Shown here: piece after piece, positions 2,678 through 55,223 of the stretch
How the letters are laid out: every line of letters begins with the position of its first letter
Position numbering within the stretch: position 1 is the first letter of the stretch
Origin: a virus
Taxonomy: Duplodnaviria > Caudoviricetes
Reading direction: 5' to 3' (one strand)
Virus record (IMG/VR): IMGVR_UViG_3300028591_000013
Location: 1-64,000 of that record
DNA: 64,000 nucleotides
The notes under the pieces: model-generated
The model's input: only the letters and a program-made list of their open reading frames with translations
Told to the model about the DNA's origin: nothing
Databases searched by the model: none
Position numbers and translations under genes: made by a program

Positions 2678-5600
2678 TGAGAACAATTCCTATATAAACT
2701 CGTTTACGAAGGGAATGAATTCTGACACCGCATTTGACCAAATAGACAACGCGCAATACATATATGGTCAGAACATTAGAATTACTAAGAATCAACTCCT
2801 TAGTAGTTCTGGTGACTATTCTTCTGTGCACGAAGGAATTGTTACTCCTGTACCCAGTGGCGTCAGTATAGATTCTCTCGGTACTATATCAAATAATCAA
2901 CGAATAATTGCAGTATGTTCTGTAGATCAGTTAGCTATTGTTGTTACTACAAATGATAGCGACTTACACGTATGGAAATTTACTGTTGACGAAGTTAACA
3001 ATACATGCAACGAATTTAAGGAGGTTTGGTTTGCAAACGGTGTATGGGAAGGAAATGCGCCAGGGAAGATATCAGCTGTATTATATAAAGAGCTTGAAAA
3101 CGTAATAAAACTATATATAGCTACTGGTAAAGACCCTATTATAAGTTTAAGAGTTGACGATGAACAGGATCATTCTTATATAACAAACGGAACTCCTGTA
3201 CCTATTGATAGTCTTATAAATAATAGAGAGATACCAGACAAGAGAGTGGTTATAACAGATATTATATCTGGAAGACTTACAACATAGTAGGTATAGTACA
3301 CATATAGATATTACAATAAATATGGTAATACCACTCAATTAGCTCCTCTAACTAATAAGATATAGGTTATTGATTCGTCTAGATCAAAAGAGACAGGTAA
3401 TGCTGAAAACACAGAAACGTCCGTTGGATTATCGTTGTCGATAGATATGTCCGGGTATTCTAGCAGATATAAAAAAATACAAGTATATAGACTATCTTAT
3501 ATAACACCCGGACATGATGCAGAAGTATCTTTGATATACGATGGAGATATAAAAAGCCAAAACAATTCTTTTGTATTAAACGATATTGGTATAGACCCTC
3601 TGCAAAAACTTTCAATGGAGGAGTTTGCTGCAATGTCCGGTCTTATACTTATTCCACAAACAATAGAACAGAACTAGGAATATATGTTTTGTGGAAATGT
3701 TACAGACGATACAATACTGAAAAACGTAAGCCTTGGTACAGCTGGGTCAATAAGTGAAATAACAGCAACTGTTGTATTATCAGATAAAATAGATGGAGAT
3801 ATACCTGATCCCGGGAAACACTATTATAAAGATGAATATAGTACTTTCTCCGATGGTTCTTCCGTATTGAGTTATTTAACAGAACGTGGAGTAAATCCTT
3901 AGATTGTAAAAGCTTCCTACAATGATATGATTACTTCTAGTCTCTTAAGATCTTTACGACGCGGAGAGAAGTATAAATACGCATTAGTATTTTATGACAA
4001 TAAAGGAAGACGAACAGATGTAATAAGCCTAGATGAAAAAACTATTTCTGATTATAACACATCTCGTCCTTTTGAATGTGTAAACGGAAAATTATTGGCC
4101 CACCCAATTGGGGTAAAAATACAACTTCCGACACTTACCGGTGATCGAGATGCTATAAGTAGTATTGTAGGTTGCTAGGTTATTCGTAGATCTTCATCCG
4201 AAGTATATCAAAAAACATTGCTATAGGTTACTTTAGCTAGACCAATATCTCAAGCAGTGCTCGATACAAATATACAAGAAATATCTGATGCAGATGATAG
4301 TGTAACTAAGAAATCTCCTTTCTATCCTAGTGGATTTATGTCTGTTAACGGGTTGTATATTTTTCCGTCGTATTATTACAAGTTAGGAATACGTACTCCA
4401 AGTGGGGAAGAATTAGGATATTATGCTGATCTTAGAGCAAGAACACGAAATCATAAGTTGTATTAGATTTTTTCGTCTGAAATAGATTTTAGAAGAAACG
4501 ATGTATTATCTAAAGTAAATACATCTGATACAAGTATAGAAGAAATGTTATATGTATCTTCTGTTTTTGCTAAATATACAAACAGTACAAAAGATACTAC
4601 GTATGACGGAACACTCCCAGGCTCAATGACGGCAAACCCAAACTCTTCGTATTATACTCAAGAAGAAACGGTAAGAACATACAATGTTGGAGTTGTCCGT
4701 GGTGAAGGAAACATGTTCGCTGTTGGTTCGTTGAGTACTTCTGCTCAAAGCGTGTTACTTAGTGTAGATGATCCAAATGTAACAGATGTGCAATTTATGA
4801 GACTTGAACCAGATAGTCTAGTCGCAGGACCTGTTATGAGCATTTCTGATAATGTAATGTCACATTCTAGTGTAACGGACTTTATAAACGAAGCAGCAAT
4901 ATTAAATAGGTCTATAGTAATAAAAGTAGATCTTCAATATCAACCTACTACGTTAACAGTAACTACTAGAATACCTCCTGTTGATTATGATTCGCAAGAA
5001 GGTACAATAGGAATAAATAGACTTTATGTAGAAAAACTTTCGTCTGACAAAAAACAGGCAAGGCATTGGATATTTAACTTCTATAAAACAAACGGTGGAT
5101 CGTTCTCTGGATTTGGTACGTAGAATGTAAATCAAATAAAAGATGTTAAAATACCAGAATGGAATTCTGCGTTTAGCGAAGTACAGAGAAATGAGGATCA
5201 GGATATATATACCGCTATAAAGAAGTATAAGAGTTTTACTACAAATATTGACTCCTACGTATACAACAATTGGGTTTCATTCGCAAAATATGATTTAAGA
5301 CCAGGAGAAGAAGATTAGGCTAATATGGACTATACTAGAGAAGGCGGCAATGGTCCAAATTCAGCAGAGATGCACGGTAGAACAAAAAGATATAGAAACT
5401 GGTTACAAGCTCCTGTATATCCAATGACACAAGATAATCAGGCTGTAAAAATAGGATATATAGGCGCAGGACCGTCTTGTTTCTTACTTACTACTGAGAA
5501 CGAAACCGGTTTATTCCCATTGAATTCTAATGCCTTCTATACTTCTATATGTAATATAACTCACGAAGCAAAGACAAGTGACGTTCAATCTGATGAATTC

Positions 5601-7037
5601 ACTCAGTATTATGGGTTTGGAAACTATTTCAATGTGTCGTATAATGCAAACGGCACGCCAAAAGATAATACAACACTAACCGTATTTGACGGAGATGTTT
5701 ATATTACTCCACACGAGTTAGGAACTATGTATAAAGCATATGATTTTAACTCTATGGATACACTTCAGTCTACACAGGTTGTAAACTACATTCCTCTTGA
5801 ATCAAAAGTAAATACTTACTTTGACTACGGAATGAATCTTATGAATACACAGAGCGAAAATCTGTTATATGAACCTGGGCAAATAGATGGCGTTACTACA
5901 CAAGATCGCCCTGTTCATCAGTATAACATGATATATTCTGATAACGACGCTTCTAATGACGTGTTCACATTAATAAGCACAGACAAAAACGAAACAAATA
6001 GTTTTAAGTAGCGTACTTATTATTCTGATTTGAAGACAAATGGTGAGTTTATAGACAACTTCCTTATATTCAAAGCAGCGTCTTTTATTGATGTAGACAG
6101 CAAATACGGACAAATAACAAACCTACTCACAGATAAGAACATGTTGTATTACTGGCAAGATCACGCATGCGGACGGTTCAGCGTTAATGAACGTTCTCTT
6201 GTGAATGATCAGAACAGCAACACTATAATGCTGGGATAGGCAGGCATATTATCACGTTATGATTATATAAGTACGAGATATGGAATGCGTCTTTATGATT
6301 TCTGTGCTAGAACAACTGAAGGAGGAGTGTTCTGGGTAGATATAAATAATAAAGCTATTGCGGCACTTGCAGAAAGTAGGGCAATAAATGTAGGAGAACA
6401 ACTAAATATTCAAAACTTAGTAAATCGATACATAACGGCAGATGTTCCGCATGTAGATTACGATTTACAAAACGACGAAGTGTTGTGTAAATGTTTAGGT
6501 TAGGACTAGATGGTGCTAAACATAAAGTATAATATCGGTACTTCTATATATACAAGACGTTATGATTTTATGTTATATATAAAGAATCACCTGTATGGTT
6601 TGACTGTAGACAACGAACATCAAAAACTTGATATAAAAAAGCATAACTATCTAGAACAAGCTACTTCGTATTTATATCCATTGGCTGTTAGTTTTATTGT
6701 AAACCCAATGGCATCTGTAACAAAAGTATTTGATTCTCAGCAGTTTATTCCAATTAAACGAGATGCTTTCACACAAGTAGATCATAGTGCATTCCTAGAA
6801 GGAGCGGTAATGTCGTTTGAAAGCGATATTATAAATAAAGAGTTCAGCGGCAATATGGAACCGTATACTGATAGGGAAGGTAATGTGATATATAATATAC
6901 CTAGATATATCACAGGAGATGGTTATGGAAACAGAATACGCGGTAAATGGCTAAGAGTAAATATAAAAAGCACAAATCCAACAGAATTCCTTACTATATC
7001 ACACATAATAACTAAATTCAGACAATCTTATAGTTGA
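2667..7037 (+). CDS. Muzzle / tail stabilization protein, 1456 aa (TAG=Gln)
   Basis: Ten ORF-track fragments in one frame, joined by TAG. N-term NSFTKGMNSD, internal RSLRRGEKYKYALVFYD, C-term NRIRGKWLRV, typical of crAss muzzle proteins. TGA at 7035. Confidence 0.85.
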
Positions 7038-7038
7038 T

Positions 7039-9102
7039 ATGAAAAGAAAGAATAAATTACCCAGATACTGGCTGGGAACAAGAATGCCTACTAGTTTAGG
7101 CTACCAACCCAACTATGGGATTGGAGGACAATAGATAAGTAGCACACTTGGATAGAATCTGTATCCTGAGATATAGACAACTAGATAGAATACTATTCCT
7201 AGTGCACTAAATAAGCTTCAAACAAATTCATCGTTTGCTTTAGAAACTTTAAAAAACTTAAAGAGTTTTGTACCAGCTGCAAATGCTGCTGTGAATACTG
7301 CAGCTTCTGGATTTGGAGCGTCTTTGGCATCAAGTGGAGTAAGAGATGTTTCTAACGTAATAAGAAATATAAATGCAATTGGACAAAAAGGGGTTGGACA
7401 GGCAGCAAGTAAAGTTGGATTAAATTCTTTAGGAGGTATTACTGCTGGTATAGGCACAGCATATGGTCTTGCTGACATGGGTATGCAATTTGCTGCAAAC
7501 AAAGACCATAGAAGTGCTGGTTAGATGCGCGATACATTGACTAAAAATATATACACAACAGACTTAGGTAATCAGTATACTAAATATGGTGGTGTAAATC
7601 TAGGAAATGAGCTCAAATATGCGAGAGCTTAGCGTGCAAGCCGAAACCTTAATTTTACAGCGTCTTCTATTGGAACGGGTATGTCGGCTGGAGCATTGGC
7701 AGGAATGGCAGCAGGAAGTTCTTTTCCAGTAGTAGGAACAGCCATTGGAGCAGGAGCAGGAGCGCTTCTTGGAGGATTGGCATATCTTGCTGGATTCGGA
7801 GATACAGAAGAAGAAACAAGGCAAGCTGCTCAAGATATTACTGATGCTACAACAATGGAAGGACGTATGTCGGAATCTATTGCTAAAAGTAAAGACGCAC
7901 AATAGGGTTTTTATGGTAGAACTAAATCTGGTAGTCTTGGTGCAGCTAATGGAAAACGTCCAATACACGCTAGAAACGGATACGGAAACGCAATGGTTTC
8001 TCATGGAGAAGTTATAGGAAATCTTAATGAAGGTTGGGCTTATAGAGAACCAGGAGTTCCTGATAATAATGATACATTAAAGAGGCATATAGCCAAAGAT
8101 GATTTTGTTATAAGTAATAAATATGGCCTATCTGATTATGCAGCATCTACTGGAGATCTTGTAGGCGCTTTATAGTTATAGGATATGTTAATGAAATATA
8201 ATAACGGAAAGGGATATAAATGCGGTAAACTTCCAAAATTTGAGGGAGGTTACTGGGATAGGGCATTATTGGCAATACCGAACATAGCACAAATATTGGC
8301 TGCTACGTAGCAATACAATAAAGACAAAAATATGCCCGTAGAAGCCCCTGCTGTGACACCGGATTATTCCTCTGCTAGAGATTAGGCATACGCAATACTA
8401 GGCGATATGATTCCTTCTAGACCTTACATGAATATGATAGACGACGAAGTTGCTAGAAACAAATATGCAATTAGCCGTATGCCAGGCATTGGAATGGGCG
8501 GAAGAGCTGTTTTAATGGATTCTGCTGATAAAACGGGTTTGAATGAAAAAACAAAGCAGCTGCTCAATATAGATGAACACAATAGAGCAAGAAGAGAGAC
8601 TGCTAGAAAATTACTGGCAAACACCAATGCTCACGCTGAAGATATGCGTATATAGACTACTACAGACCAGCTCAATAGGTATGCACGCGCCAACGCTGTT
8701 AAATATAATGCATTAGCACAAGACCTTAAGAACACAGTAACGCCGTTCGCGCAATGGTTTGGAGATTGGTGGAAGGATAATCAGTATCGAATAGCTAATA
8801 ATTAGAATGAACGAAAAATTAAGTTATTTGAAACTCAACAAGGTATAGATAGAGATTGGCTTAATTATCATTTAAACGGAGGCAATACAGCTGCTACATC
8901 GACACAACTTCCAAGTTATTTAAAATTAAATACGCCAACAATGACATTGTAGTCAAATCAACCAAAATATAGATTTAATGATATTTCTACATGGCCTGGG
9001 TATCCAAAAACTACTTTGTCAGAATTTACTTTACCGGAAAGCCTGTCGTGGTTACAATACAGAATACCAAACTAGTATAAATATATTAATCAATTTAGAT
9101 AA
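7039..9102 (+). CDS. Virion cargo/ejection protein, 687 aa, Gly/Ala-rich membrane-like segments (TAG=Gln)
   Basis: ATG 7039 to TAA 9100, only TAG interruptions seen; GAGAGALLGGLAYLAG hydrophobic stretch; follows the muzzle gene like crAss cargo genes. Confidence 0.7.
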
Positions 9103-11044: not shown

Positions 11045-14000
11045 ATGCCAAAGAGAACTATAAAAAACAAACAAAAGTACTCATTGGATCAAGAAACACG
11101 TCGAGGGATGGAGCTACTTCGTCACCTCGACGATGTTATTGATCTTGGTACAGCGATATAGTCGCACGATCTGGAAATGATTTCCAAGATAGATTCTGAT
11201 GCCGTTAAACAAAGGCGTCAGAATACCGAAGAGTATGAATGGGAAGAGCAAAAGGAGAGAGAAGCTAAAGATTCAAATGACGTAAAACAATCAATAGAAG
11301 ATTCTAGAAATTCTATTCTTGGTTAGCTAGCAGAAGCATCTTCTCCGTCTGGAGGTATTGGGAATGAAGCAGATGCGCAAAATATAGTAGCTGCAGATGC
11401 AATAGGTATAGCTTATGGGCACATACAAGCAAAAGATATCCCAGGAATGCCCGAAACCTATAGAATGTCTGATTTTCTAAAAGATTAGTGGAATTCGTTC
11501 TTTGGAGAAATGAACACTCTTCAAGCAGAAGATGCTAAAGGATATTAGGTTCGTTCTCAAAATGATAAGAATCTCATAAAAGACTATCTCAATTCATTAG
11601 ATACGCTTGATGAAATAGATAATATCAATGGGGAGCTTGAACAGATAAATAATGCTTTATAGCAAGGTGGCTTATCTGTAGAAAATAGACAATCTTTGAG
11701 AAGTAGAACAAGTTCTCTTATTTAGTAGAGAAATATTTTATAGGCAGAATATGAAAGTCTTGCGCCAAATAGAAAATTACTTGAAGATACTGTAAATCAA
11801 TCTGGTGTAGGAGCAGCTTGGGACGATTTAATGTCCGGCAATGGTATATTTGGCGGTAACTGGGCAAATCCTGCAGGTAAAGTTACTGCAGCTCACGATG
11901 AACTTAATGATGCCCGTAGATTTATATACGACCTTGGAAAAGGTACCAGAAACAGGAAGGAAACCCGTTAGATGCTTAATAGGGCTCTTCAAGAATACGA
12001 CAACCTTAATGAAGGGTGGAACGCTGTAATAGAAGAGAATGAGCGCGATGCTAAATATCACAAAGATAAGATATCCAACTGGTTCCAAACAAGAGCAGAT
12101 AGAACTGGCATAAATTTTACAGATCCTGATACTTATTTGTTTAAGATGCCAGGCATCATCGGAGGTTCCTCTAGTTCTTATATGAAGTAGGTACCTGCAA
12201 TGCTTTCTTCTATATTAGGTTATGCTGCAGCTAATGTTGCTACGGGTGGCGGAGCATTACTTGCTACTGCTCTCGGCGCAGCAGGATCTTTCGCCATGAA
12301 CCGTGCGGCAGGTATATCTGAAAACAATGCAGAAGTTGCTTTAGCTACTAAAGAGAAGATAAAAGCAAAGACAGACCTTACTGACGAAGATATAGATAAA
12401 CTTATTGCTGGTAAGTTAGACGATCCTAAGAAACTTCGTACAATAACAGAAAACATAAAAGACGTAGAAAATCTGTTCAATCAAGATATGGCTGCTACTA
12501 CATGGGATGCTGCTATAGATGCAGCTCTTGGCGCAGTACCGGTAGGAGCTATTGCAAAGATGAATAGATTTGTACGTGGTACAAAAGCTTGGAGAAAGGC
12601 CGTAACAAATCCTACTATGAAGAAGATTCTCCGTAGTAAGTTTGGAGAAGACATAGTAAAAGGATGGGAGGCTGGAAGTGTAGCTAGTCCTTTAGTTGGT
12701 GTTGGGGCAGCAGCCGCAAACGCTACTGTAGGCAGGGCAGTTAAGAATGGAGCAGCAGGTCTTAAAAATCTTGTAGTTAGAGCTACAGATAATACATTAT
12801 ATGGAGCTCTTGCACACGATATGGCTAAAGAGATGTCTTTACTTGGTAAGACTGCAAAAGCACTAGATCTTGATAAAATAGCTGTAAACCGGGCTATGAA
12901 AAAGGGTCTTGGCGCGCAATACATGAAAGACATTGCCGGCAAGGTAATCAAATCTACTATTGCAGAAGGTATTGAGGAAGGTAAATAGCACGTTAACGCA
13001 GAAGCTTATAAGAATTCTTATCAGAATGACCCAGAGTTAAATAGTACGCTCGATATAGCTCTTACAGATGCACTAAACGGACTCACAATGGGCTCGTATG
13101 TGCTCGGCATTCCTTTGGATGGACTTGGTATAATAAATATAAAAGACCAAGATCTTTTACAAGAAATCAAAGGAGGTATGCTCGGTGGTTGGGGACAAAC
13201 AGCAATGGTAAATGTTGCTCAGAATATTGTTCCTTATATTAGTCAGCAGAAAGCTGCTGATATTATTACAGAACAGATATTTAATAACAAGCTGTCTTCT
13301 ACTGCGTAGAGAGACCAATATAGACAATGGTTAAGCAAAGGTTTATTTAAGCCTGGGCATCAAGATATACTCAATTCGTTTGATAGGCTTCGTAAAATAA
13401 ACGAAGAATATCAATAGACAAACGGATAGGTGGGTATAGCTCCGCAACAAATAGATGAGGCTCAGTAGAAATATGAACGCATAATAAGCTTAGCAAAAGA
13501 TCCTTTAATGCGTTAGTCTGCAGAAGACCAAGGAATTAACGTAAGAACAAAAAATAATCCGCTTACGTGGAAATCCAATAGTCAGTATCACGACTATGTT
13601 GCTACCATAGCCACAGCTATGGATAGAATATAGGAAATTGCGTAGAATAGAAATGAAGCTGCAGTAAATCTCAATTAGATAAAATAGCAAATACAAACAA
13701 ATCTTTCTATATCCGATGAAGGTTTGAGCGAGGTATTAAACGCATTACAATCTAATGAAGAATCAGACGATCTCATAAATCGTCAAAACGAAATAGAATC
13801 TGTAGGAAATACAGTAATGACTGAAGGATAGTCTGATTTTGAATATACTGACATTGTTGCACAACTAGCAGCGTTACTTACGTACAGAGATCAGATTGAA
13901 CAGGGATTAAAATTACAGCAAGATAATCCTTCTGCAAAGGTTCGTAGGGGTTTAAAAGGCCAACTAGATAAGCTAAATAAAGATATAGACGAATTAATAA

Positions 14001-53398: not shown

Positions 53399-53475
53399 TG
53401 CGCCAATACCAGATTCGAACTGATATATACATACCCTAGGATACGTATGTTTTGCTCTATTAAACTAATCGACTC
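53399..53475 (-). ncRNA. tRNA-like element with CUA at the tip of an elongated anticodon arm
   Basis: Acceptor GAGTCGAT/ATTGGCGC; D-arm GTTT…AAAC; arm TACGTAT-CCTAGG-GTATGTA; T-arm ATCAG-TTCGAAT-CTGGT. Confidence 0.55.
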
Positions 53476-54536: not shown

Positions 54537-54638
54537 TGTTATTTAATTAATCTCTTAAGAAAGTTCTTCTACACGGTCCCCTGCGACTTTTACATCAGGA
54601 ACCAGCCTACCCTCCCAAGTTGCCCTCGAAGAACTATG

Positions 54639-54712
54639 TGGACCATGCAGGGCTTGAACCTGCGACCTCCAGATTATGAGTCTGTTGCTCTAACCAACTG
54701 AGCTAAAAGTCC
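54639..54712 (-). tRNA. tRNA(CAU), most likely Ile2
   Basis: GGACTTTTAGCTCAGTTGGTTAGAGCAACAGACTCATAATCTG…GGTTCAAGCC…GGTCCA. Confidence 0.9.
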
Positions 54713-55010
54713 AGATGCAGGCACTTAGGTAGCCTGCTCACCGACTTCACGCTGCCTCCTTGAGGCCCGTGTAGTCAACGATGTTCATATCGCCGTTTAA
54801 TTTTATGTCAAAGCGCTTAATGTCTTTACTTCCTTCGCCCGTCAAAATCCTGTCGAGCCCGGAATGCCCACATGAGGCCTACGAGTGGGCTGCGTAGATA
54901 GTCACCCCTTATTCGCTCTATGTGACAGATAGAACTCGGGACTTGCCGTGGACCCGGAGGGATTCGAACCCTCGTCCGAACGAAATACCTCAGACACGCT
55001 AAGATTTCTT
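54713..55010 (-). ncRNA. ssrA: Circularly permuted two-piece tmRNA
   Basis: Acceptor piece (…GGACGAGGGTTCGAATCCCTCCGGGTCCA, ends 54949) lies upstream of the coding piece (GGGCTCGACAGGATTTTGAC, starts 54860). G3·U70 and A73 present; tag frame 54794-54747 = GDMNIVDYTGLKEAA*. Outer ends approximate. Confidence 0.88.
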
Positions 55011-55223
55011 TAGTTGCAGCTTGTCAAATTGAGTATATGGTTAATACTACTCTGCAACCCAGCTGAATCTCCCAATGATCAGTTGGAAAATCCAATTTAA
55101 GGCTATTTACAGGCTCTTTGACGCGTTTTCTAGCCTCTTGTGGGTAGCGAACCCACTCAAGGATATACGACGCCTCAAATCGCTTATAACGTCACCTTAA
55201 ATGTTCTACATTGACCATGCTCT

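Follow-up and report, generated by a model that had tools for sequence, protein, structure and literature searches.

A predicted two-piece tmRNA gene conserved in TAG-recoded crAss-like phages of the Suoliviridae

Introduction

The two-piece tmRNA is a textbook case of a permuted RNA gene. Such tmRNAs have been described in the Alphaproteobacteria, a betaproteobacterial lineage, the cyanobacteria and mitochondria (PMC11915505), those of bacteria by Keiler et al. 2000 and Sharkady & Williams 2004, as cited in PMC9004378, and the Rfam models RF01849, RF01850 and RF01851 have been merged as RF04321 (tmRNA_permuted). Phages also carry them: 53 of 133 unique phage tmRNAs are two-piece, 50 of these 53 come from aquatic phages, and marine myophages are among the carriers (PMC9004378). 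The tmRNAs of mycobacteriophages follow the one-piece order, and mycobacteriophage DS6A encodes an RNA that consists of the tRNA-like domain (TLD) only, without a tag frame (PMC4131195). The 2025 tmRNA database holds 79 phage sequences and, uncommented, 48 permuted instances in Bacteroidota genomes (PMC11915505, Table S2).

Here, we analyse a locus in a 64,000 nt stretch of phage DNA, hereafter the window (positions 1 to 64,000 of the IMG/VR record IMGVR_UViG_3300028591_000013), where an earlier note made from the sequence had placed a phage-encoded, circularly permuted tmRNA with its own tag. The tmRNA of the window is real, conserved, phage-borne and two-piece, and is of a lineage distinct from those described. 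It resembles the tmRNAs of the Melnitz-type marine myophages in being phage-encoded and permuted and in that no phage SmpB is reported for them; these differ in being of the alphaproteobacterial type and matching a bacterial two-piece lineage, and the Melnitz gene comes with a glutamine riboswitch (PMC9004378). With the mycobacteriophage tmRNAs and the DS6A RNA it shares that parts of the trans-translation system are borne by a phage.

Identification of the gene

ARAGORN called a permuted tmRNA gene on the minus strand of the window, on which all features given below lie, and the tag it returned, GDMNIVDYTGLKEAA, is the one in the earlier note. The whole gene (54713..55011) runs from the acceptor piece through a spacer to the coding piece and is defined by the ARAGORN tmRNA* call, by a match to RF04321 and by a conserved block in two alignments of relatives, A3 and A4. 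A search with Rfam bore out the permuted reading in extent but not in score: all 213 model positions of RF04321 could be aligned, to 54747-54997 (E 4.6e-6), but the 38.9 bits obtained lie below the gathering score of 47, and the copy in the window is therefore seen at E-value thresholds, while at gathering thresholds Rfam reports only tRNAs in the window. The model for betaproteobacterial two-piece tmRNAs, beta_tmRNA (RF01850), gave 31.7 bits against a threshold of 84 and covered model positions 76-172, which represent the tRNA-like domain; beyond that domain the window copy has no match to this model.

When the coding piece and the acceptor piece were joined in silico, ARAGORN recognised an ordinary tmRNA in one piece, 214 nt long, its tag unchanged. 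Hence, the gene is a true circular permutation of the standard layout, and its order departs from that of the one-piece genes (RF00023), in which the 5' acceptor strand is followed by the tag, the pseudoknots and the 3' acceptor strand. The coordinates in the earlier note all held when the window was re-read, and its description of the gene as very compact is correct, the RNA totalling about 214 nt with no pseudoknots found. Bacterial two-piece tmRNAs have the same order of acceptor piece, spacer and coding piece, a tRNA-like domain built from two strands, the tag on the coding piece and a full-length match to RF04321. The phage gene differs from them in its affinity to the one-piece tmRNAs of Bacteroidota, in its small size and missing pseudoknots, and in being found only in phages. 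We infer function from this anatomy alone, and it is very probable that the gene is a functional two-piece tmRNA of a TAG-recoded crAss-like phage of the Suoliviridae.

Relatives and distribution

The window DNA polymerase is 70 % identical to those of the crAss-like phages cr272_1 and cr273_1 (Suoliviridae, subfamily Oafivirinae), and a blastn search of GenBank phages found the tmRNA region in the same two phages. The RefSeq record of cr273_1 (NC_055904.1) includes a feature 'transfer-messenger RNA, SsrA' with ARAGORN coordinates and the tag GNINVVDYTGLQEAA, the blastn table lists a tmRNA under cr272_1 too, and the copy in cr124_1 (NC_055899.1), with the tag GNVNNIVDYTNVA, is also annotated as tmRNA in RefSeq; in both RefSeq records the coordinates are the padded ones of ARAGORN. 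The tmRNAs of cr273_1 and cr124_1 are encoded by homologous genes in the same neighbourhood and have tags related to that of the window copy, from which they differ by compensated sequence changes. What follows the coding piece also differs: in cr273_1 a tRNA-like element lies between it and tRNA(CAU), and in cr124_1 several CDSs intervene. The uniqueness implied in the earlier note can consequently not be upheld, as two-piece tmRNAs were known from marine phages (PMC9004378) and this very family is annotated in RefSeq. A search of the literature for tmRNAs of crAss-like phages or Crassvirales returned only mentions of ARAGORN in methods sections. The family is already labelled in public records, but no paper describing a tmRNA of crAss-like phages was found.

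IMG/VR was searched with two pattern scans, the second of which used a 21-nt motif from the end of the tag and retrieved 23 contigs, mostly of about 100 kb. Homologues were found in 22 further IMG/VR contigs, and 14 IMG/VR copies score above the RF04321 gathering score (49-71 bits). Five further tags from this source conform to G-[DN]-x-N-[IV]-[VA]-DYTGL-[KQ]-EAA. Ten of the 12 other Suoliviridae genomes examined have a homologue, namely cr272_1, cr273_1 and eight of the ten that were searched with RF04321. Full-length matches were obtained for six Oafivirinae (cr131_1, cr130_1, a Bohxovirus, Dulem virus 42, cr124_1 and cr7_1) and two Loutivirinae (cr53_1 and cr52_1), and five of these eight pass the threshold, at 50-71 bits. 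No match to RF04321 was found in the Loutivirinae cr113_1 and cr4_1. The tags of the distant relatives (GNVNNIVDYTNVA, GNYNVVDYTHVA and GNTSYVTDYTRLVA) retain a DYT core and have different ends.

A bacterial home for the gene was also sought. The 21-nt family motif had no match in 185,579 species-representative bacterial and archaeal genomes, so a bacterial home was rejected and the family is regarded as phage-borne.

The tRNA-like domain and helix P2

Pairing was assessed in two alignments. A3 contains 15 distinct sequences and was evaluated over a 40-pair structure made up of P2c, P2b, P2a, the T-stem, the acceptor stem, a small helix in the tag and the 3' hairpin. A4 contains 21 sequences, distant genera included, and covers the tRNA-like domain with P2b and P2c (21 pairs). 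In A3, 88.7 % of the cells are paired, compared with 32-51 % when the partners are slid by 1-3 columns, and 19 of the 40 pairs change on both sides, a number reached by none of 500 shuffles. For A4 the corresponding values are 93.3 % of cells, 29-52 % in the slid controls and 15 of 21 pairs changing on both sides, again with 0 of 500 shuffles reaching the observed count. Each helix of the tRNA-like domain and of P2 is kept by compensatory changes across two phage subfamilies, and the covariation in relatives that the earlier note had put forward as a check is thus present throughout.

The acceptor stem is formed between the two pieces. Its 5' strand, GGGCUCG (54854..54860), opens the coding piece with G1 at 54860, the presumed RNase P site, and was assigned from sequence and covariation; its 3' strand, CGGGUCC (54950-54956), is followed by the discriminator A73 at 54949 (together 54949..54956). 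The seven pairs of the stem are G1-C72, G2-C71, G3.U70, C4-G69, U5.G68, C6-G67 and G7-C66, and four of them covary in the 21 sequences. The pairs, with the G3.U70 and A73 pointed out in the earlier note, are all there: G3.U70 is kept in 15/15 sequences of A3 and 20/21 of A4 (U70 likewise in 20/21) and A73 is invariant. In the acceptor piece of the window GGAC precedes the T-arm, GAGGG/UUCGAAU/CCCUC (54957..54973), which has a 5-bp stem with every cell paired and four of its five pairs covarying in the 21 sequences, and a 7-nt loop of the UUCGAAU type. The D-loop analogue ACAGGAUUUUGAC (54841..54853) fits the tmRNA_permuted consensus, ends in GAC and is similar to the ACUGGAUUUGAC of Bacteroides. 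The two pieces can thus pair into a canonical tRNA-like domain of the alanine type, and charging with alanine is predicted.

The coding-piece strands of P2 (54812..54840), supported by duplex predictions and covariation, consist of P2a (54833-54840), an internal loop GAAGUAA, P2b (54822-54825), a bulge AUUAA and P2c (54812-54816). P2a pairs GGGCGAAG with UUUCGUUC of the acceptor piece (54978..54985), as found with RNAduplex and by pairing each sequence separately. P2b pairs AGAC with GUCU (54992..54995) and has compensatory changes, GUCU/AGAC being replaced by GACU/AGUC or GUAU/AUAC. P2c pairs GCGCU with AGCGU (54996..55000), and all five of its pairs change on both sides among the 21 sequences. 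Beyond it lies the conserved 5' tail of the acceptor piece, AAAGAAAUCU (55002..55011), which is conserved in A3 and at which the position of the 5' end is putative.

P2a was the sole weak helix in A3, with 59 % of cells paired in the MAFFT columns, a value that reflects a problem of register in the MAFFT alignment, as about half of the sequences are out of register. Direct reading from the junction shows 6-8 contiguous bp of P2a in 11 of 18 sequences, the paired strands differing in sequence from lineage to lineage without any relation; in the other seven of the 18 the same pairing, with one acceptor-strand U bulged, was seen by eye. Of the helix 2 drawn in the earlier note, the parts corresponding to P2a and to P2b stand, but the half that paired UUAAG with CUUAG does not. 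This pairing is 90 % paired in the relatives, but it has no two-sided change, every change in it breaks a pair and it does no better than shuffles, and it was rejected. It is mutually exclusive with AGCGU/GCGCU, which covaries at 5/5 pairs in A4 and is the outer part of helix 2.

The coding piece and the tag

P2c is followed by a single-stranded A/U-rich linker of 17 nt, UUGACAUAAAAUUAAAC (54795..54811), which was identified with the ARAGORN resume consensus and resembles the AAAUUAACU-GGC context of Bacteroidota. The tag frame (54747..54794), GGC to GCG UGA, encodes GDMNIVDYTGLKEAA and a stop according to ARAGORN and to the conservation of the frame. It had been noted earlier that the tag resumes at GGC after an AT-rich stretch, begins with Gly as in Bacteroidota and ends in Ala-Ala-stop, and this reading was confirmed. 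The end is EAA in the window and Val-Ala (HVA, NVA or LVA) in the distant relatives. In 15 relatives the frame is always 15 codons long, with zero indels, and its variable sites number 4, 2 and 7 at codon positions 1, 2 and 3, respectively; the DYT core is maintained in distant relatives through synonymous codon changes.

The tag region is also almost fully paired. RNAalifold predicts a 5-bp hairpin, H1, within tag codons 1-6 (54778..54793, GCGAU/AUCGU; all cells paired, two pairs covarying) and a P5-like helix of 13 bp (54743..54776; all cells paired) that takes in tag codons 7-15, the stop codon and AGUC. Altogether, 270/270 cells are paired in the helices of the tag region. In 15/15 sequences the wobble base of the Tyr codon, C or U, changes together with the middle base of the stop codon, G or A (10 versus 5), and the amino acid pairs at tag positions 2 and 5 (D...I, N...I and N...V) are a reflection of H1. 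Either the RNA structure or the peptide can thus account for the nucleotide conservation of this region. Since the helices are fully paired while the frame is constant and the changes synonymous, the peptide and the RNA structure are both plausibly under selection, and the two are not fully separable. For a hairpin to start at the resume codon is unusual.

None of the pseudoknots PK1-PK4 was found in the window gene. The 17 nt between P2c and the resume codon leave no room for PK1, and a single hairpin follows the tag. PK1 is usually regarded as important for tmRNA. If the phage RNA of about 214 nt does lack pseudoknots, it would provide a natural minimal tmRNA for asking what trans-translation needs.

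The spacer, the ends and the flanking tRNA

The 88-nt spacer between the pieces (54861..54948) is presumed to be excised. In relatives the spacers range from 15 to 199 nt and are unrelated in sequence. A structured or functional spacer was considered and rejected, as the fold of the window spacer is no better than that of shuffles (z = -0.42) and both length and sequence vary among relatives. The bases following A73 in the window are CGG, of which only C74 is part of CCA; hence, CCA is not encoded in the window. Among 18 distinct IMG/VR copies, three encode CCA in full, and several more encode part of it.

The coding piece ends with the hairpin GCAGGC/UACCUAAGU/GCCUGC (54717..54737), which has a covarying stem and a deeply conserved loop. 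Oafivirinae copies retain the loop motif CUACNNAAGUG, even those in which the tag region is otherwise diverged, and the loop may comprise a U bulge, two pairs and an NNAA tetraloop. No covarying pseudoknot partner for it was found. The CUUAG of the acceptor tail and the AGGUA of the internal loop were each considered as partners and rejected on inspection, one-sided changes in relatives being uncompensated.

tRNA(CAU) (54638..54712; ARAGORN, and Rfam with 66.2 bits) begins 4 nt past the hairpin. The earlier note had seen that hairpin and tRNA lie directly 3' of the coding piece; they do, and the arrangement fits a predicted trimming of the 3' end by RNase P. In the IMG/VR relatives, as well as in several of the distant copies from Oafivirinae, a tRNA or a tRNA-like element with acceptor stem and T-arm lies within about 20 nt past the coding piece. 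The tRNA-like element, which most relatives have next to the 3' hairpin and in which the middle is reduced or odd, can be seen in L028 (~13320-13385) and also in L025, L044, L116, L144 and L146, and is probably an RNase P handle for forming the 3' end of the coding piece. In the window its place is occupied by tRNA(CAU). This tRNA is 77 % identical to tRNAs annotated as tRNA-Ile (ileZ) in several Stx-phage records, and may be a lysidine-type tRNA-Ile instead of tRNA-Met.

Upstream of the gene, at about 55075-55125, a motif conserved in the family, GCCUUAAAU, is followed by a hairpin with the loop CUGAUCA. About 45 extra bases separate the motif from the acceptor piece in the window, and they include a UCAAUUUG box that resembles the Bacteroidota -7 promoter element. 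The conserved motif may be a promoter or a processing site.

Genome context and TAG recoding

The phage genome is 103,568 bp long with a 128-bp terminal repeat and was rated 100 % complete by the tool used. TAG is a sense codon in its plus strand genes, and one ORF of 5,069 codons includes 51 in-frame TAGs. The minus strand block from 33 to 64 kb has essentially no in-frame TAG; the tmRNA lies in it, together with the tRNAs and the genes for the DNA polymerase and an ECF-type sigma factor. The boundary lies within the window, where the plus strand genes at 543-32913 contain TAG and the minus strand block at 33452-63660 uses the standard code. Hence, recoding is split by strand and module in this genome. 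No ordinary tRNA(CUA) was found in the genome despite TAG being sense. With a lowered threshold, ARAGORN picks up a tRNA-like gene at 53399-53475 (minus strand), whose anticodon loop of 8 nt it reads as 'ctag'.

This context raises the question of whether the tmRNA is specific to TAG recoding, rescuing ribosomes stalled at UAG or running off the end of host mRNAs after readthrough of UAG. In late genes, TAG is a sense codon both in the window genome and in all relatives with a tmRNA that were checked (36 in-frame TAGs in gp35 of cr273_1, besides the 51 in the ORF above), and the tmRNA lies beside tRNA genes in the strand block that is not recoded. Among the genomes checked, TAG is recoded in cr273_1, cr53_1 and cr52_1, which have the tmRNA, but equally in cr113_1 and cr4_1, which have tRNA(CUA) and no match to RF04321; a normal tRNA(CUA) was present in all Loutivirinae genomes checked. 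TAG recoding thus does not require a phage tmRNA. As all Suoliviridae checked are recoded, the association of tmRNA and recoding is not separable from shared ancestry and does not discriminate among them. The suggestion in the earlier note of rescue at ambiguous UAG codons therefore lacks discriminating support, and we consider a role specific to recoding unlikely.

Ancestry

A 29-nt pattern built from the phage T-arm and acceptor strand with three positions free also matches one-piece tmRNAs of the Bacteroides type, whose tags include GENNYALAA. Every ARAGORN tmRNA in the fetched loci was then scored over two regions that had played no part in the fetching, the 5' domain and the resume region. 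The best matches outside the family were all one-piece tmRNAs of Bacteroidota (scores 19-25), compared with about 10 for alpha-type two-piece tmRNAs, the reference set being small and incidental. Phage and Bacteroidota tmRNAs have in common the resume context AAAUUAAC-U/C-GGC and a tag with Gly first.

The one-piece tmRNAs of Bacteroidales, for example that of L046 (396 nt, tag GENNYALAA), share with the phage RNA the T-arm and its flanks, bar acceptor-stem positions, a near-identical D-loop analogue, and an A/U-rich context before GGC and a Gly-first tag that contains Tyr. The host gene differs in its standard order, in being about twice as long, in having pseudoknots and in its 9-residue tag ending in LAA, compared with 15 residues ending in EAA in the phage.

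These likenesses favour a separate permutation from a Bacteroidota one-piece tmRNA, as judged against that small, incidental reference set, and most likely the gene arose by permutation and shrinkage of such a tmRNA inside the phage lineage. The derivation from a Bacteroidota-type tmRNA, and not from the alpha, beta or cyanobacterial lineages, which the earlier note had suggested, thus gains support from the 5' domain and resume region. Alternatively, the phage could have captured the gene in permuted form, from a bacterium with a two-piece tmRNA of the alpha, beta or cyanobacterial type, with no separate permutation. Marine phages do carry two-piece tmRNAs of host type (PMC9004378), and beta_tmRNA matched the window copy over the tRNA-like domain. 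That match, however, is to the generic tRNA-like domain only and far under the threshold, and in its 5' domain, its resume context (AAAUUAAC(U)-GGC) and a tag that starts with Gly the phage gene is nearer to the Bacteroidota one-piece tmRNAs than to the permuted tmRNAs compared, making capture quite unlikely. A separate origin in an abundant gut-phage family would, if true, mean that permutation of tmRNA recurs.

Predicted mode of action

In the mode of action that we propose, a single precursor would be transcribed from the non-recoded early/replication strand. RNase P would cleave twice, just 5' of G1 (54860) and at the start of the tRNA downstream (54712), the RNase P site of tRNA(CAU) setting the 3' end of the coding piece; the spacer would be removed and CCA added after A73. 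Host AlaRS would charge the RNA and host SmpB would deliver it to stalled ribosomes, where translation would resume at GGC and append A-GDMNIVDYTGLKEAA, and tagged products would end in AGDMNIVDYTGLKEAA. No SmpB was found in the phage genome, and the function of the tmRNA would thus depend on compatibility with the host. The likely benefit is extra ribosome-rescue capacity during infection. As the tag ends of the phages (EAA, HVA, NVA and LVA) are not the LAA of the host, the fate of the tagged proteins may differ. This would raise the question of why phages that rewrite the genetic code encode a ribosome-rescue RNA of their own whose tag is not the host's.

The RNA might instead act as a decoy or inhibitor, its tRNA-like domain titrating host SmpB, EF-Tu or AlaRS or competing with the host tmRNA, with the consequence that host trans-translation is damped or nascent proteins are spared the LAA degron, the tag frame being secondary. 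There is a precedent in the DS6A RNA, and a similar molecule inhibits tmRNA (PMC4131195, PMC11915505); that the phage has no SmpB, that its tag does not end in LAA and that the tag region is heavily structured would also agree with a decoy. A pure decoy would, however, have no need of the complete resume context and the constant-length frame ending in Ala-stop that are conserved across two subfamilies, and we consider this explanation very unlikely. A spurious ARAGORN call, or the decaying remains of a host tmRNA acquired at an integration site, to which the false positives of ARAGORN's permuted mode and the sub-gathering Rfam score of the window copy might point, is ruled out for practical purposes by the covariation counts, both halves being kept in the 22 further IMG/VR contigs and 10/12 other Suoliviridae genomes with compensatory changes throughout.

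The preferred reading thus remains a rescue RNA supplied by the phage. In its fullest form, it would be a separate origin of two-piece tmRNA beside the three bacterial lineages, made by phages from a Bacteroidota one-piece tmRNA, stripped of pseudoknots to about 214 nt, working with host SmpB and redirecting rescued polypeptides through a non-LAA tag (DYT core; EAA, HVA, NVA or LVA). We put this combination forward tentatively, as a possibility that is rather unlikely to hold in full.

Other permuted tmRNAs and intron-bearing relatives

ARAGORN called other permuted tmRNAs with unrelated tags in the IMG/VR contigs L051, L089, L097 and L099 (GKVVNMNQVGMRKAA, GEQVELAMAA, GNVIEMFPKLRAVA and AKVIQMNPFQAVATAA, respectively). 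Gly comes first in three of these four tags, and L089 has a Bacteroidota-like AACUGGC resume context. Further lineages of phage-borne two-piece tmRNAs may exist.

In three IMG/VR relatives of the window gene, a group I intron (Rfam RF00028, 63-87 bits) lies in or next to the T-loop of the acceptor piece: L119 (~5366-5568 and 7024-7270), L120 (3568-3798) and L125 (7072-7317). There are at least two insertion points: in L120 the intron follows the first U of the loop, and in L119 it comes behind the entire loop. Such copies would combine the 'permuted' and 'intron' forms of tmRNA genes, which are separate in the tmRNA database.
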